Part shown: positions 25,495-38,271 of the stretch, piece after piece
Layout: every line of letters begins with the position of its first letter
Numbering within the stretch: the first letter of the stretch is position 1
From: Acidobacteriota bacterium
GTDB lineage: Bacteria > Acidobacteriota > Vicinamibacteria > Vicinamibacterales > UBA2999
Assembly (NCBI GenBank): GCA_046726375.1
Contig: JBKPAJ010000023.1
Coordinates: forward strand, 258 to 64,257
Reading direction: 5' to 3'
DNA length: 64,000 nt
Translations under genes and position numbers: made by a program
The notes under the pieces: model-generated
Databases searched by the model: none
The model's input: only the letters and a program-made list of their open reading frames with translations
Told to the model about the DNA's origin: nothing

Positions 25495-28741
<3,247 letters not shown>

Positions 28742-33425: not shown

Positions 33426-34049
33426 TTAATCGTTCCGGCCGATTGCGACACCGGCACCGGCAACAATCAGGAGGCTACCACTGACGCGATTGGTCAGCAT
33501 CCGGAACCGCGGCTGATGCGCCAATCGGCATGCGCTCGCGGCCAGATAGCCGTAACCGGCGAGGACGAGAAACTCGATGACTGCGGAGGCCACGGCGAGA
33601 ATCAGCATCTGCGGCGCGATCGGCCGCGTGGCGTCGATGAATTGCGGCAGCAACGCCGCGAAGAAGACAAGCGCTTTCGGATTCGCAAGCTGCAGTGCTG
33701 CGGCACGCAGCCACGTGCGCTGCGCCGTCCCGGGCGCGGTCGCACGAGGCGAGGACAAGACGAGTCCGGCGCCCGCAATGGTTCGGATGCCGAGAAACAC
33801 CAGGTAAACGGCGCCCGCATACTTCAGAGCGATGAAGACGCGATGGGACGCGAGCAGGACGGCACCCAGGCCAAGTGCCGAGAGAATGAAGTAGATCGCA
33901 TTCGCCGTGAGAATGCCGGCGTTCGCCGCCAGCGAGGCGCGGCCGCCGCGCGCCAGCCCGTGAGAAACCACGAAGAGCACGGCCGGCCCTGGCGTGAGAC
34001 ACAGGGCCGTTTCCGTGAGGACGAATAGAAGAAAGAGCTGCTGGTCTAT
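33426..34049 (-). CDS. LysE/RhtB family exporter; probable ATA start
   Basis: LTPGPAVL, LKYAGAVYL, NPKALVFF..LLPQF. The PGP motif is upstream of the first canonical start (GTG 33980). Confidence 0.88.
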   Translation of the reverse strand: MDQQLFLLFVLTETALCLTPGPAVLFVVSHGLARGGRASLAANAGILTANAIYFILSALGLGAVLLASHRVFIALKYAGAVYLVFLGIRTIAGAGLVLSSPRATAPGTAQRTWLRAAALQLANPKALVFFAALLPQFIDATRPIAPQMLILAVASAVIEFLVLAGYGYLAASACRLAHQPRFRMLTNRVSGSLLIVAGAGVAIGRND

Positions 34050-35485
34050 CGCTGTTTCTGCGGCTGCGACGTGGTGATCGGCCGATCGATCACGATCTGG
34101 CTGTCGATCGAATACTCGGTGAACGCCTGGTACATCTCGTCCCAGCTCTGCTCCGACCAGTAGACGGGCAAATGCGGCGCCGGGTTCCAGCGGTTCTTCG
34201 CCGAGTTGTCATATACGCCGATGCCGACGATCTTGCTGCCGGCCGGAATCCGCAGCGGCGTTTCGAGCTCGTAGTTGAACTGCCAGTTGAAGTCGAACCG
34301 CGGGACGTTGAGGATCACTTGATCGCGGCCGTCGGGATACGTCACGACCCACTTGAGGCTCTTGCCGCGAAGATGCATGTGCGGCGACATGTAATACAAG
34401 GTGATGTCTTCGGTTACGGGCGTGACGCCGATGATTTCCCAGTTTTCAGCGTAGGGCGGGATGTTCGGTGTCGCGCCGCGACGCCGGGTGCTGCCCTCCT
34501 CGGCGACGTACTCCACCTCTTTGCCCTCGACCCGATACAGCGACAGACCGCCCTTGTGCGTCGCGAGCGGATCGCCGGCCTGGCGAATCAACACTTCGTG
34601 GGTGACACGTTCCTTGTTGAACCAGATGCCGAGGCGCGTCCGATCCTTCTCCGGCTTACCGGTCGGGTTGTAATGAACCTGCCAGTTCAGATATTTGCCG
34701 GCAGGAATACGCTTTCCAACGTTCGGGCGATGCGTGTCAACGCCTCGGCCCGGCACCCACGACAAAAGCTTCGATGAGCCCGGCAAGCCCATCCCCTCGG
34801 TCCGCGGCAGACCCGCCGAACCGCGGTCGCCGACGATTTTGCCGTCGGGACCGATCAAACGGCCATTGACGATCGTGGTGCCCTCAGGAATATCGACAGC
34901 AAACAGGCCGGCGTGATGCACCACCGCGCGATTGCCAGGCCGCAGTTCGAGCGTCTCGGCAAACCGATCCTCGGTGAAGGGAATTGGCGAATAGAACATC
35001 TGCACGCCGAGTTCGCCTTCTGCGGGGATCTCGAACTCGATCGGCATCTCGAGCACGTAATCGGGCTCGGTGCCCTTCGTCCACCCGGTTGCGAACGTTG
35101 GCTCTGGCGGCAGATCCGCGTCGTTGCCTCTTGGCGCACCGGCGTCGACCCAGGCAGCGACGGTGTCGATTTGCGCCTGCGAGAGGCTCGGATCGTTCCG
35201 CATCTTGAGACTCTGCGACGAATCGGCACCCCAAGGGGGCATCTCGTGCGCGAGCACTTTGCTCTTGATCGCCTTGGCCCACGGCCGCACGTCTTCGTAC
35301 GAGAGCAGGGACATCGGGGCAACTTCGCCCGGCCGGTGACACTGGGCGCAGTGTTTGTAAACGATCGGTGCGATGTCTTTGGCAAACGTGGGCGCCGGAA
35401 CGGTTGGCGCTTCAGCGCTGCGAACGTTCTGCGAGGCAACCGCCACGGCGAGCGTGCCGAGCACAACCGAAAGCAGACGTCTCAT
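34046..35485 (-). CDS. Secreted heme-c plus PHM-like (copper type II monooxygenase-like) protein
   Basis: Signal peptide, CAQCH, VVHHA, QVHYN, PHMHLRGK, DEM; GAGGGGG RBS. Confidence 0.8.
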   Translation of the reverse strand: MRRLLSVVLGTLAVAVASQNVRSAEAPTVPAPTFAKDIAPIVYKHCAQCHRPGEVAPMSLLSYEDVRPWAKAIKSKVLAHEMPPWGADSSQSLKMRNDPSLSQAQIDTVAAWVDAGAPRGNDADLPPEPTFATGWTKGTEPDYVLEMPIEFEIPAEGELGVQMFYSPIPFTEDRFAETLELRPGNRAVVHHAGLFAVDIPEGTTIVNGRLIGPDGKIVGDRGSAGLPRTEGMGLPGSSKLLSWVPGRGVDTHRPNVGKRIPAGKYLNWQVHYNPTGKPEKDRTRLGIWFNKERVTHEVLIRQAGDPLATHKGGLSLYRVEGKEVEYVAEEGSTRRRGATPNIPPYAENWEIIGVTPVTEDITLYYMSPHMHLRGKSLKWVVTYPDGRDQVILNVPRFDFNWQFNYELETPLRIPAGSKIVGIGVYDNSAKNRWNPAPHLPVYWSEQSWDEMYQAFTEYSIDSQIVIDRPITTSQPQKQR

Positions 35486-35523
35486 GCCGCCCCCTCTTTT
35501 TGGACGAATCCGGCGATTTTACC

Positions 35524-35889
35524 CTATTTAGGCGAACATTCCGCCGAAACCATGGTTAGCGAGGTGAGATTCAGCCGGCTCATCGGAGTCGCCTTGTTCA
35601 GCAACCCTTTGAGCAGCACCGCTTGGCCGCGATGTTTGGGCAGATCGAACACTGCGACACCGATCAGCTGATATTCGTTCTTACCGCTCTTTGGAAATGC
35701 CGCGAGCTCTTTAGCGGAGGGCGCGTTCGCGTTGCTGACCACGGGGTCGGTCGCGTCTGTGAGCACCCACGAACCCGGAGTGGTTTCTTTCAGACATCCA
35801 GCAACCGCGACGACGTCCACTTTATTCGTTGCCGGGGCCTGCGCTTGAGGAAGAGCCAGGACGGCAAATACAAGAGCCAGACCGTTCAT
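35524..35889 (-). CDS. Small secreted hypothetical protein (two-Cys OB-fold-like)
   Basis: Signal peptide; VAGCL...W.LT.A...HRGQAVLLKG...MVSAEC. Confidence 0.75.
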   Translation of the reverse strand: MNGLALVFAVLALPQAQAPATNKVDVVAVAGCLKETTPGSWVLTDATDPVVSNANAPSAKELAAFPKSGKNEYQLIGVAVFDLPKHRGQAVLLKGLLNKATPMSRLNLTSLTMVSAECSPK

Positions 35890-35897
35890 GGCTCGTT

Positions 35898-36524
35898 ATG
35901 ATACGCGCAGTGCGTGCATTCGCAGCCACTCTCATCGGAATCGCGCTGAGCGCACTCACGGTCCTTGCGCACGATGCAGAGAGGACACGCATCATGTTGT
36001 CCTTTCAGCACGACGGCAGCTTTGTGCTCAACGTCGCGAACGATCCAAATTGGCTGCTGCTCCGCCTCGAATCGTTTGCCGGCGGAGCCGTGCCGGCCGC
36101 AATTACGCCCCAAGCACGCGACGCGCGACTGCAGGAGCTTGGCGCCGTATTCATCGATCGCGTCGTGTTGTGGGTCGATGGAGACGAAATACGGCCCGAG
36201 TCTGCTGAATACGATCCGGCGGGAGCCGGGTTCGTTCTCCGCGGGCGGGTGCCGCGGGAGGCGCGAACCTTGCGATGGCTGTATGGACCGGTGATCGATC
36301 CCTACCCGCTCACGATTCGACGTGCAGACGGGCGATCAACGACGGAATGGATTGAAGGATCGAACTGGAGTGGAGTGATCGATCTCTCCGGTCAGTTCCG
36401 CCGCGCATACCAACCCGATCCCGTCCTAATCGTTGTCGCAGTATTTGCGATCGGCGTCCTCTGGCGTTTGCGCTCTGTAAAAGGGCCTGCCCCATTAGTT
36501 ACCGCGAAAGACAAAACGTGGTAA
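35898..36524 (+). CDS. Exported/membrane-anchored hypothetical protein
   Basis: Signal peptide ending VLA-HD and a C-terminal hydrophobic segment; ATG at 35898. Confidence 0.65.
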   Translation: MIRAVRAFAATLIGIALSALTVLAHDAERTRIMLSFQHDGSFVLNVANDPNWLLLRLESFAGGAVPAAITPQARDARLQELGAVFIDRVVLWVDGDEIRPESAEYDPAGAGFVLRGRVPREARTLRWLYGPVIDPYPLTIRRADGRSTTEWIEGSNWSGVIDLSGQFRRAYQPDPVLIVVAVFAIGVLWRLRSVKGPAPLVTAKDKTW

Positions 36525-36576
36525 CCGTGACACGCCGTTGTTACCAGTTCTAACTAATCGGGCACGCCCTTTTACA
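36476..36576. repeat. MITE-like element with 26-bp terminal inverted repeats
   Basis: tgtaaaagggcctgccccattagtta versus the reverse complement of 36551-36576 (2 mismatches). Confidence 0.75.
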
Positions 36577-36578
36577 AT

Positions 36579-37676
36579 TCAACGCGACGTCGATCCCGAC
36601 GGAACAAATTTCTGCAGCCGCTGCCCGTACGTGTCCGCCGCGTAGACCGCGCCTTTCGAATCCACAACAACACCGTGGACCCAGTCAAACTCGCCCGGGC
36701 CCCAGCCCTGTTTTCCCCACGTGGCGAGAATCTTGCCGTCCTTCAACTGAATCTTGTGCACGCGTTCGAGCGCGTGATCGGCCACAAACGCAAATCCATC
36801 GTTCCCTTTCCGCGAGGTGCCGATATCCCACGGATTCCAACCGTCGTTGGCAAACTGCCGGATGTAGGTGAGGTTCTTGTCGAACACCTGCACGCGATGG
36901 TTTTCGCGATCGATGATGTACAGGTTTTCGTCGGCGTCGACCGCGAGCTTGTGCGGCAGCACCCACTCGCCCGGACCGGTGCCTTTGTCCTGCGGTCCGC
37001 CAGCCCCTTTCCCCACTTGCTTGATGAACTTGCCGTCTTTCGAGAACAGCACGACTCGATTGTTGCCGTACCCATCGGTAACGACGACGTTGCCATTGCG
37101 CAGAACGGCGATGCCCGACGGAAGATCAAGGTGTGTAGCGTCGTTGCCGCGCTCGTTCGTCGTGCCCAACTGCAGCAGGAACTTGTCGAGCTTGGGACTG
37201 AGCTTGACGATGCGATGCGCGTCGCGCTCGATGACGTAGACGTTGCCTTCCCAATCGACGGTCCCGGAGTGCTGCCAGTTCGGGTTGATCGCCTTGCCGT
37301 TGATCTCCTGATCCGCGCCGCTCATGACCAGGTTGCCGTCGCGATCGAACACCATCACCGGCTTCGCGCCGCGATTGAACACGTAGATCCGATCGTTCTG
37401 GTCGATGGCCAGTCCGGAGATGCCGGGCTGGTTCGTGGGACCGCCCGGGTTTTGCGCGCCGCCGCCCGGCGACCCTCCACGCGCACGTCGCGCCGCCGCC
37501 TGCGCTTCGCGTTCGGCGGGAGGTGGTGGCGGGTCTTTCAACCCGAAGAACATGCCCGCGGGCAGCTTGGGCCAGTTTGGAACCAGCTGGTACCCGCCAT
37601 CGCCCTGCGCGCGCACTCCAAACTGCGTGAGGAGAACCGCACTCACGGCCACGAGAACGGAAAGCCGTCGTGTCAT
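36579..37676 (-). CDS. Secreted NHL-repeat beta-propeller, PAL (peptidyl-alpha-hydroxyglycine lyase)-like
   Basis: Signal peptide, YQLVPNWP, IYVFNRG, DGYGNNR, LPHKLAVD, DRENHRVQVF, WVHGV; AGGAA RBS before ATG 37676. Confidence 0.82.
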   Translation of the reverse strand: MTRRLSVLVAVSAVLLTQFGVRAQGDGGYQLVPNWPKLPAGMFFGLKDPPPPPAEREAQAAARRARGGSPGGGAQNPGGPTNQPGISGLAIDQNDRIYVFNRGAKPVMVFDRDGNLVMSGADQEINGKAINPNWQHSGTVDWEGNVYVIERDAHRIVKLSPKLDKFLLQLGTTNERGNDATHLDLPSGIAVLRNGNVVVTDGYGNNRVVLFSKDGKFIKQVGKGAGGPQDKGTGPGEWVLPHKLAVDADENLYIIDRENHRVQVFDKNLTYIRQFANDGWNPWDIGTSRKGNDGFAFVADHALERVHKIQLKDGKILATWGKQGWGPGEFDWVHGVVVDSKGAVYAADTYGQRLQKFVPSGSTSR

Positions 37677-37677
37677 C

Positions 37678-38271
37678 TCATTGTTCCTTCCGCCACCACG
37701 GATTGCCGTAGTTGGTATATGGGCCATCGTCGACGGAGATCGTGGTGGCGACACGATACGCCAGCGGTGATCCGGCGCGGATGTTTTGCTTGAGTCGAAC
37801 CAACTTGCCGCCGGCTTTGAACGCCGCGCTTTCGAAAAAGATGTTGTAAAAGCCGCCGAGGTCGCCGCCGATCGTTGCCGTTTGCAGGTAGGCAAAGCCG
37901 CGGCTGTCGGTCACGCGGCGAGTCGCGGTTTTCTTCTCACGCTGATACTCGATGATCTCTTTGATCGCGATTGGCCCCGCAGGTCCCCGTCCCGTGGTCA
38001 CGGCTTCGTAGAGCCCTTCGTTGATCTTGCGGTAAACCGTGGTCCCCTCAATGTGGCCCGCGGGCCCAAGCGGGCTGTCAGGGACGTCCCATTCGAACGT
38101 CCATTTGCCGAGAAAGTACGCCTCGAAATCGAACAGCGGCAACACGTCGTCGTTCTTGGTCGCCCTGCCCAGGTCGGGCATCTGTCCACGGGGCTGCTGT
38201 GGCGGCTGCGCCGTTTGGCCAACCAGCGTCGAACTGCAGAGAATGACGAGCGCGGCAGTACGGATGATCAT
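37678..38271 (-). CDS. Secreted hypothetical protein (predicted beta-rich)
   Basis: Signal peptide; YFLGKWTFEW motif; abuts the NHL gene. Confidence 0.7.
   Translation of the reverse strand: MIIRTAALVILCSSTLVGQTAQPPQQPRGQMPDLGRATKNDDVLPLFDFEAYFLGKWTFEWDVPDSPLGPAGHIEGTTVYRKINEGLYEAVTTGRGPAGPIAIKEIIEYQREKKTATRRVTDSRGFAYLQTATIGGDLGGFYNIFFESAAFKAGGKLVRLKQNIRAGSPLAYRVATTISVDDGPYTNYGNPWWRKEQ

Follow-up and report, generated by a model that had tools for sequence, protein, structure and literature searches.

A conserved acidobacterial gene module combining a cytochrome c-fused, PHM/DBH-like copper monooxygenase with a PAL-like NHL propeller

The locus described here raises the question whether a bacterium can carry out, in its periplasm, a two-step conversion of the kind known from peptidylglycine alpha-amidating monooxygenase (PAM), in which peptidylglycine alpha-hydroxylating monooxygenase (PHM) acts before peptidyl-alpha-hydroxyglycine lyase (PAL). 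To our knowledge, peptide amidation by PHM and PAL is regarded as a eukaryotic invention; bacterial PAL-like enzymes are used in biotechnology. The sequence analysed, called the window throughout, is a stretch of 64,000 nucleotides (contig JBKPAJ010000023.1, assembly GCA_046726375.1) from a soil acidobacterium of the Vicinamibacterales (Acidobacteriota). It contains a five-gene periplasmic module consisting of u197 (DUF1579-like), a PAL-like NHL gene, d208, s121 and a PHM-like gene. An original prediction had proposed that the products of the PHM-like and the PAL-like gene form a periplasmic hydroxylation and amidation (or N-dealkylation) pathway, with a fused cytochrome c taking the place of ascorbate. 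The module proved to be real and unusual; peptide amidation in particular is as yet an unsupported claim.

The papers cited below by PMC number are represented by excerpts, and what is attributed to them is limited to these excerpts. The amidation reaction is said to be catalysed only by PAM (PMC6529398), and, apart from their own enzyme, the authors of a paper from 2025 knew of PAL alone as a lyase dedicated to a hydroxylated intermediate (PMC12508155). For bacterial PAL-like enzymes, peptidyl-alpha-hydroxyglycine lyase activity was described in vitro, and their natural function was called unclear (PMC10900485). In the literature searched, which left subscription journals and patents mostly uncovered, neither a bacterial enzyme of the PHM-like kind that carries a cytochrome c domain nor a bacterial PHM/PAL pair was found to be described. 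A conserved cassette of a PAL-like and a PHM-like gene thus provides a concrete, testable hypothesis for the function of the bacterial PAL-like proteins.

A copper monooxygenase with a heme-c domain

The PHM-like gene and its parts are the following:

34046..35485, minus strand: gene for a secreted protein of 479 amino acids (aa), a predicted PHM/DBH-like dicopper monooxygenase with an N-terminal c-type cytochrome domain
35336..35350, minus strand: CAQCH heme-c attachment motif (residues 46-50), with Met82 (MPPW) as the likely sixth ligand
34091..35062, minus strand: predicted PHM-type catalytic core (residues 142-465), with H190/H191/H271 for CuH, H369/H371/M451 for CuM, and the conserved Arg373

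The motifs read in this protein by the original prediction are all present, namely CAQCH at residues 46-50, VVHHA at 188-192, QVHYN at 269-273, PHMHLRG at 368-374 and DEM at 449-451. With the single sequence as query, no match was obtained in NCBIfam and nothing relevant in the PDB, and the Pfam family Cytochrome_CBB3 was hit below threshold (E=6.4e-4, with 20.4 bits where the cut-off is 27). In an alignment of 30 homologous sequences with 31-50% identity, C46, C49, H50, M82, H190, H271, H369, H371 and M451 were found to be invariant in 30/30, and H191 is conserved in at least 90% of the sequences. The profile made from these 30 sequences matched rat PHM at E=5.8e-10 and human dopamine beta-hydroxylase (DBH) at 1.7e-8, placing VHH on VHHMLLF of PHM, VHY on LQVHY, PHMHLRGK on HTHHLGK and DEM on DEMC. 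The HH / H / HxH / M set of the 479-aa protein is thereby aligned to H107-H108, H172, H242-H244 and M314 of PHM, of which H107/H108/H172 bind CuH and H242/H244/M314 bind CuM (PMC12164859). Two relatives, P0245 and P0164, exceed the cut-off of 23 bits for the Pfam family PF03712 with 29.1 and 25.0 bits.

The predicted fold is likewise that of the PHM/DBH family. For the AlphaFold model of the 479-aa protein (pLDDT 85.3, pTM 0.82), the best Foldseek matches were DBH at 4.3e-13 and PHM at 1.8e-12. The superposition on the PHM core that had been asked for was run on this predicted model: with VIA-align, residues 142-466 were placed on residues 62-327 of PHM with a Z score of 20.0 and a root mean square deviation (rmsd) of 2.8 Å over 256 residues, compared to a Z score of 20.6 for DBH and of at most 8.1 for the next fold family (PNGase F). 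The two-domain beta-sandwich core, the His-His...His set of CuH and the His-x-His...Met set of CuM that define the PHM/DBH family were all found. The same holds for the features of an exported class I c-type cytochrome, a CxxCH motif and a distal Met, the N-terminus being hydrophobic and, by visual inspection, similar to a signal peptide; the fusion of a heme-c domain to the monooxygenase, as originally claimed, is borne out by the invariance of C46, C49, H50 and M82. With high confidence, the 479-aa protein is predicted from sequence and model to be a secreted dicopper monooxygenase of the PHM/DBH type with a built-in c-type cytochrome.

Compared to PAM (1PHM/1OPM, 3FVZ), the protein shares the two-domain fold of PHM and its H-H-H / H-H-M copper ligands. 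It differs from PHM in the fused c-type cytochrome, which would stand in for the dependence on soluble ascorbate, and in the lack of the PHM triad R240/N316/Y318. DBH and tyramine beta-monooxygenase (4ZEL) were the best or tied-best structural match and have the same set of copper ligands; in contrast to DBH, neither a DOMON domain nor a C-terminal dimerisation domain was detected in the window protein, and its heme-c domain is located at the N-terminus. The protein belongs to a family, with 36-45% identity, in which AhpC/TSA, cytochrome c and PHM-like domains are fused, and which occurs in Acidobacteriota, Planctomycetota and others. Unlike these fusions, the window protein has no redoxin domain, and it falls into the sole clade that is linked to a PAL-like NHL gene.

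The family is very large and, as far as the literature was searched, undescribed. It comprises 7354 proteins at E<=1e-3 among 8000 candidates scored, and 16,336 representative clusters at E<=1e-3, of which 2348 reach E<=1e-30. Among 37 paralogous open reading frames (ORFs) from eight genomes, 31 carry the full heme and copper signature; of the other six, one retains all copper ligands but runs into a contig end, and the remaining five are degenerate or incomplete. The N-terminal AhpC/TSA redoxin domain was identified in 11 of 18 longer relatives scanned, and Cu2_monoox_C was matched in four of these 18, twice above the Pfam cut-off. Homologues P0391-P0400 measure about 870-890 aa and align with 90-97% of the query at E of about 1e-170; judged by this length, the cytochrome c/PHM-like unit seems to be duplicated in tandem within a single polypeptide.

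A propeller with the residues of a PAL active site

The second gene of interest is located upstream of the PHM-like gene on the same strand:

36579..37676, minus strand: PAL-like six-bladed NHL beta-propeller, 365 aa, secreted, with putative Zn ligands H136, H242 and H334 and with Tyr203, Arg257 and Arg102

The ORF spans 36579-37895 on the minus strand; translation from an internal ATG at 37676 yields the 365-aa protein. Here also the predicted motifs were found in place, with WQHS at residues 134-137, DGYGNNR at 201-207, LPHK at 240-243, DRENHRVQ at 256-263 and WVHG at 332-335. The Pfam family NHL is matched at E=1.7e-27. In the PDB, PAL (3fvz) was matched at E=1.6e-22 in a single colinear stretch, with residues 134-358 on positions 92-319 of the chain. 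The NHL domains of Thin and TRIM71 outscore PAL by summing several stretches, so that PAL ranks 6th; the same ranking was obtained with an NHL profile, with PAL at 2e-27. A sub-query of residues 134-215 maps to positions 92-175 of the PAL chain; for this sub-query, PAL ranks below the Pizza designs.

The residues were assigned to PAL from the end-points of these alignments and from the alignment of a paralogue on contig C219 of the same genome, in which ADGYFNRR, PVHC and CDRVNDR are placed on SDGYCNSR, VPHS and ADRENGR of PAL. Adding 491 to the chain index gives the rat numbering, which fits H585 (index 94) and Y654 (index 163). The correspondence is as follows:

H136: PAL H585
Y203 (in DGYGNNR): PAL Y654
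H242: PAL H690, aligned directly in the paralogue
R257 (in DRENHR): PAL R706
H334: PAL H786
R102 (in VFNRG): resembles PAL R533 (in IFHRG, chain index 42), in a region that is not colinear in the HMMER alignment

In PAL, H585/H690/H786 are the Zn ligands, and Y654 and R706 are catalytic. R533 of PAL binds the carboxylate of the substrate; the Arg resembling it in the window protein is part of the motif [IV]F[HN]RG. In the window protein and 40 full-length orthologues, R102, H136, Y203, H242, R257 and H334 are invariant (41/41). The presence of PAL-type residues in the propeller, as it had been claimed by eye, was therewith confirmed by alignment.

The fold itself is less telling. The model of the propeller (pLDDT 83.5) was superposed on PAL (3fvz) with a Z score of 33.4 and an rmsd of 2.6 over 278 residues at 28% identity, with residues 26-365 on 498-817. 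The proposed superposition thus covered the full core, but the NHL domain of Thin scored equally high (Z 33.7); PAL has the highest identity and ranks 3rd by Foldseek. Since PAL is tied with RNA-binding NHL domains, it is not the fold that discriminates but the active-site residues.

These ties bear on the explanation that the two proteins have stand-alone functions, the PHM-like protein being a hydroxylase like DBH or tyramine beta-hydroxylase (TBH), or another oxidase, and the NHL protein a lactonase-, hydrolase- or binding-type propeller with a generic Zn site. This would be in line with DBH scoring as well as PHM for the one protein, with TRIM/Thin NHL domains scoring as high as or above PAL, in sequence and in fold, for the other, and with the TonB-dependent-receptor-like neighbours of PHM-like genes in 11 of 35 regions, which suggest uptake of varied substrates. 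However, the His/Tyr/His/Arg/His set of the propeller is invariant and matches the PAL positions at both ends of the alignment, and the genes are retained as a module. Stand-alone functions are thus considered improbable.

The 365-aa propeller is consequently regarded as a putative lyase of the PAL type with Zn, Tyr and Arg, an assignment made from sequence which shares the tentative standing of the joint reading given below. The name 'peptidylamidoglycolate lyase' is used by JGI for two of 120 listed NHL orthologues. Like PAL, the window protein is a six-bladed NHL propeller with a putative three-His Zn site, a Tyr and an Arg; its second Arg, R102, resembles R533 of PAL. A likeness also exists to bacterial PAL-like enzymes such as Exiguobacterium ExiPAL (patent US 9,096,843 as cited in PMC10900485), which are prokaryotic and of the NHL type; this comparison is made by description, not by sequence. 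In contrast to the window, no genomic partner monooxygenase is mentioned for these enzymes in the excerpt of that paper (PMC10900485).

The genome of the window contains 16 NHL ORFs, of which at least five, and up to eight, carry the PAL-type H/Y/H/R/H signature. ORFs with this signature are located on contigs C84, C146, C219, C243, C32 and C76, with three in tandem on C84. A second NHL group (C123, C153, C108) has H in place of the Tyr and E in place of the last His.

Retention of the module and proposed coupling of the two enzymes

On the minus strand, the order of transcription is u197, the NHL gene, s121 and the 479-aa PHM-like gene; d208 is encoded on the plus strand. The three further genes of the module are the following:

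37678..38271, minus strand: u197, a secreted 197-aa protein, putatively a DUF1579/THAP4-like calycin beta-barrel, assigned from the ORF list and from ESM Atlas neighbours
35898..36524, plus strand: d208, divergent gene, with a signal peptide, a periplasmic domain and one C-terminal transmembrane (TM) helix
35524..35889, minus strand: s121, a secreted protein of small size in which two Cys (C32, C118) are invariant

The NHL gene starts 1 nt past the stop codon of u197, so that these two genes probably form one operon, and s121, which lies 38 nt upstream of the PHM-like gene, is for this reason probably cotranscribed with it. The NHL gene and the PHM-like gene are separated by 1093 nt on the same strand, in agreement with the spacing of about 1.1 kb noted originally. 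The divergent gene mentioned there as lying between them is d208, but s121 also intervenes, so that two genes separate the pair. As in PAM, in which the two domains adjoin, the two genes are neighbours. In contrast to PAM, the window enzymes are separate secreted proteins from different transcription units, located in a bacterial periplasm together with three extra module genes, and no Gly-extended precursor is encoded in the module.

It had been cautioned originally that both families could be highly paralogous and that their proximity might be due to chance. The paralogy is real, with 15 PHM-like loci besides the 16 NHL ORFs in a genome of 6.8 Mb. Chance was examined on 80 orthologous loci from genome contigs, found with a single-protein query, of which 77 contain an orthologue with at least 65% identity. 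The PHM-like proteins of these loci are 70-89% identical, and the loci originate from different species. In the 46 loci whose upstream flank extends over at least 9 kb, d208 is kept in 45, the NHL gene in 39 (with a mean identity of 77%), s121 in 36 and u197 in 33. Eleven window genes flanking the module were present in just 0-3 of 46-53 loci; these code for LysE, an iron permease, a threonine-dehydratase-like protein, a LapB-like protein, a 96-aa ORF, a tRNA-binding protein, a 164-aa ORF, CoaE, a glyoxalase-fold protein, FolD and TrkA. In Vicinamibacterales, the five genes thus travel as a cassette through unrelated contexts, with internal insertions and inversions.

Proximity by chance of two such paralogous families is accordingly very improbable. 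The numbers of paralogues in the genome and the pair on C219, which is not conserved, would speak in its favour, but the NHL gene is kept upstream in 39/46 orthologous loci of different species in which all flanking genes differ, and these loci are not near-identical copies. Five of the records (L048, L052, L058, L067 and L076, with about 73% identity in the module) are titled as metagenome-assembled genomes of Acidimicrobiia or Cyanobacteriota; because the organisation of the module is nearly identical, the binning or labelling of these contigs may be in error.

Among 120 further genomes of the class, sampled independently, an orthologue of the NHL gene was identified in 12. In six of these (G099, G144, G114, G081, G087 and G147), it is located beside a PHM-like gene; the pair in G147 is diverged, with an NHL protein that is 49% identical, and occurs in a genome of another family. 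In G108 and G057, the genes are at contig ends, an arrangement that would fit a module interrupted by the contig break. In G153, the orthologue of the NHL gene is located elsewhere, and the cluster of PHM-like gene, s121 and d208 adjoins a different NHL gene with the PAL signature. The association of the two genes is therefore real and retained, and not obligatory for the lyase.

The reading preferred here, held tentatively and with somewhat less than an even chance, is a two-step conversion in which the PHM-like enzyme would hydroxylate a substrate and the PAL-like lyase would cleave the product, with electrons delivered by the fused cytochrome c. Homology, conserved ligands, folds and the conservation of the module are shown here; for the electron path, the coupling of both enzymes, the chemistry and the class of substrate, we infer the following scheme. 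The periplasm is expected to contain no ascorbate, and from the domain architecture and the periplasmic location the heme-c domain would serve as the electron donor in its place, passing single electrons from the respiratory chain to CuH. At CuM, O2 would be activated and the C-H bond broken by abstraction. The position hydroxylated would be a C-H next to a heteroatom, either in an N-alkyl group or at the alpha-carbon of a small molecule or peptide end, which probably bears a carboxylate. The PAL-like lyase would then split the unstable carbinolamide into an amide (or an amine or alcohol) and an aldehyde such as glyoxylate. In this scheme, d208 would plausibly serve metal supply and u197 ligand binding, with s121 as an accessory protein.

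The logic proposed here, in which a bacterial hydroxylase works ahead of a lyase dedicated to cleavage of the hemiaminal, has been described for the stepwise demethylation of methylguanidine by MdgH/MdgL (PMC12508155). This system differs in that the hydroxylase is a 2-oxoglutarate/Fe dioxygenase, in that both proteins are cytoplasmic, and in that the lyase has no sequence homology to PAL (PMC12508155). The heme-c fusion of the window suggests how an enzyme of the PHM/DBH type might run without ascorbate, which is of relevance for the mechanism of copper enzymes and for an ascorbate-free biocatalytic amidation.

Several observations weigh against a coupled pathway. The divergent d208 between the NHL gene and the 479-aa gene excludes a single operon for the two. 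The 479-aa protein has no match to the Pfam families PF01082/PF03712 (Cu2_monooxygen) at E<=0.01. With at least five PAL-signature NHL ORFs in the genome, most PAL-like propellers must work without a PHM-like neighbour, and just two of the 15 PHM-like paralogues in this genome have an NHL gene within about 9 kb. The second of these adjacencies, on C219, in which an NHL gene lies 162 nt upstream of a PHM-like paralogue, would be expected by chance at about 0.1 (own arithmetic); it was rejected as independent support, since none of 29 orthologous loci has an NHL gene within 1.5 kb. Of 41 genomes of the phylum that were sampled, nine carry the PHM-like family, among them the genome of the window and the unpublished G023; in 20 regions of the seven others of these nine, no NHL gene was identified within about 9 kb of PHM-like genes. 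A coupling of the two families at large was therefore rejected. The NHL domain (PF01436) was also absent from all of 30 longer PHM-like homologues, which is weak evidence. In three genomes of the class (G066, G105 and G060), the NHL orthologue is retained and a PHM-like gene was found neither within about 9 kb of it nor, at E<=1e-180, elsewhere in the genome, so that the lyase does not strictly need this monooxygenase.

In a tree of 87 PHM-like sequences, for which every third orthologue of the 80 loci was taken, 22 of 159 hits were dropped for incomplete coverage and duplicates were removed, the NHL-linked PHM-like genes form one clade plus the singleton on C219. The sisters of this clade (C159, G016) have a u197-type neighbour instead. 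The association of the NHL and the PHM-like gene thus has essentially one evolutionary origin, which likewise counts against the pathway. The original proposal to look for co-occurrence across genomes was in this way answered in two parts: linkage exists in the orthologue group of the window, but not in the families at large.

The same data are pertinent to the possibility that a Cu enzyme and a Zn enzyme are co-located and chemically independent, acting on separate substrates and grouped around a shared, metal-handling d208 or a regulator. The most constant neighbour is d208, which in G066 also adjoins the NHL orthologue with no PHM-like gene nearby; the NHL and the PHM-like gene are in different transcription units, the NHL orthologue occurs without the monooxygenase in 3 of 12 genomes, and no member of the other family accompanies most of the PAL-signature NHL and PHM-like paralogues. 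However, the whole block of five genes is retained with its flanks completely replaced. In G147 the diverged pair has remained adjacent, and in G153 another NHL gene with the PAL signature is found beside the cluster. Moreover, an active site of the PAL type is known solely for finishing the PHM reaction, as far as the excerpts of two papers state (PMC12164859, PMC12508155). Independent enzymes are therefore judged possible, though on the doubtful side.

For the two-step reading, the nature of the substrate is of importance. In PHM, the carboxylate of the glycine is bound by Arg240, assisted by Tyr318 and Asn316 (PMC12164859). By the profile alignment, the residues equivalent to R240/N316/Y318 in the 479-aa protein are S367/Q453/F455, and in 32 ORFs with all six copper ligands an Arg was never found at the R240 position, a further point against the coupled pathway. 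Because the carboxylate triad is not kept, the 479-aa protein falls outside PHM in the strict sense of a peptidylglycine hydroxylase, and a Gly-extended peptide is not indicated as its substrate. A second Arg, R373, follows the HxH of CuM by two residues (PHMHLRGK; residues 372-374 at 34364-34372) and is present in 79 of the 87 sequences of the tree and in 26 of the 30 aligned homologues. Since Arg240 of PHM precedes HxH by two residues, both are expected on the same side of the strand, and R373 may have taken over anion binding as a relocated residue.

Classical C-terminal amidation, in which the two proteins would act as a split bacterial PAM and convert a Gly-extended peptide or protein into an amide and glyoxylate, is thus quite improbable. 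Both halves of PAM are present with their metal and catalytic residues, the propeller has an Arg that resembles the carboxylate-binding R533 of PAL, and R373 might replace R240. The triad of PHM is nevertheless lost, and the module contains no Gly-terminated precursor. The small protein s121 was considered as such a precursor and rejected, since, of 51 sequences, 43 end in K, 4 in R and just 2 in G. No genes of the type found for peptides that are made on the ribosome and modified afterwards (RiPPs) were seen in the window, in accordance with the earlier remark that a Gly-extended precursor is not evident. For bacterial C-terminal amidation described so far, other enzyme classes are employed, according to the excerpt of PMC12912966.

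Of the periplasmic PHM/PAL pathway as originally proposed, both homologies have stood and peptide amidation has not; a non-random linkage of the two genes holds in the orthologue group of the window, not for the families at large. In its fullest form, the two-step reading would make the module the first prokaryotic counterpart of the PAM pathway, with a cytochrome c-wired monooxygenase of the PHM type and a lyase of the PAL type performing N-dealkylation or amidation, and with d208 and the calycin protein as dedicated helpers; this is conceivable but doubtful. If true, the pathway could have a role in the catabolism of N-acyl-glycine-like compounds or in the maturation of a secreted product. 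The numerous PAL-like propellers of bacteria would then gain a first natural role, and a first point of entry would exist to a PHM-like family that exceeds 16,000 representative clusters.

Accessory genes and surroundings

For d208, a signal peptide is followed by a predicted N-terminal His of the mature protein (..VLA|HDAERT..). A small residue precedes the motif H[DE]xE[RKQ]T in 61 of 65 d208 loci, and the mature protein is for this reason predicted to begin with this invariant His. Two forms of d208 exist, a long form in 50 of 58 loci and a short form with a single TM helix in 8 of 58 and in the window. In all four long forms tested, HupE_UreJ_2 (PF13795) was identified at E of about 1e-47. 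The window protein, which ends after one TM helix, has no Pfam match and lacks the multi-TM HupE_UreJ_2 domain. A role in metal handling is plausible from sequence, and d208 may represent a metal site of the His1 type on an uncharacterised HupE/UreJ subfamily.

For u197, the nearest ESM Atlas clusters (score 0.97) carry DUF1579 on 13-42% of their members, and one of these clusters is named as a THAP4-like heme-binding barrel. The direct comparison with DUF1579 in Pfam (PF07617) gave E=0.15, below the cut-off. A paralogue of u197 is located directly upstream of the closest PHM-like paralogue on C159 (region 26147-28122), and a u197-type gene adjoins tandem PHM-like genes in G016 (C22). Given such neighbours in the sister clades, the link to the calycin protein is older and wider than the link to the NHL gene.

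For s121, no match in Pfam and no relative in the PDB was found. An alignment of 27 sequences contains 20 invariant columns, with the two Cys among them. The start codons of s121 and d208 are 8 nt apart (window 35887-35900), so that each promoter must lie within the other gene. Between 33300 and 38700, no sigma-70-like promoter was found and five terminator-like sites were counted, with 5.0 expected. In a scan of the window, no Rfam family reached its gathering score.

The remaining genes of the window are housekeeping genes, namely glyQS, recO, aspS, hisS, sucCD, mdh, serA, pyrG, coaE, folD, accC, pilus genes and rpsB/tsf/frr, so that the five genes of the module form an island. Further genes are associated with the PHM-like gene at other loci. 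In 29 orthologous loci, it is followed by a cytochrome c-fused propeller of the PQQ type, for which NCBIfam gives a hint of 'acido-empty-quinoprotein'. A pair of PSCyt/DUF1592 and DUF1552 genes follows in 23 and 21 loci. Examples of such arrangements are L020:11593-13506 and L036:5987-11661. Neither the PQQ-type propeller nor this pair is present in the module of the window. The 35 paralogue regions, taken from the genome of the window and from L089-L108, contain additional neighbours: the TonB-dependent-receptor-like protein referred to above is an outer-membrane protein with PF25183 and CarboxypepD_reg, an unannotated family of about 557 aa adjoins PHM-like genes in 8 of the 35 regions, and permeases of the MacB/FtsX type do so in 6.

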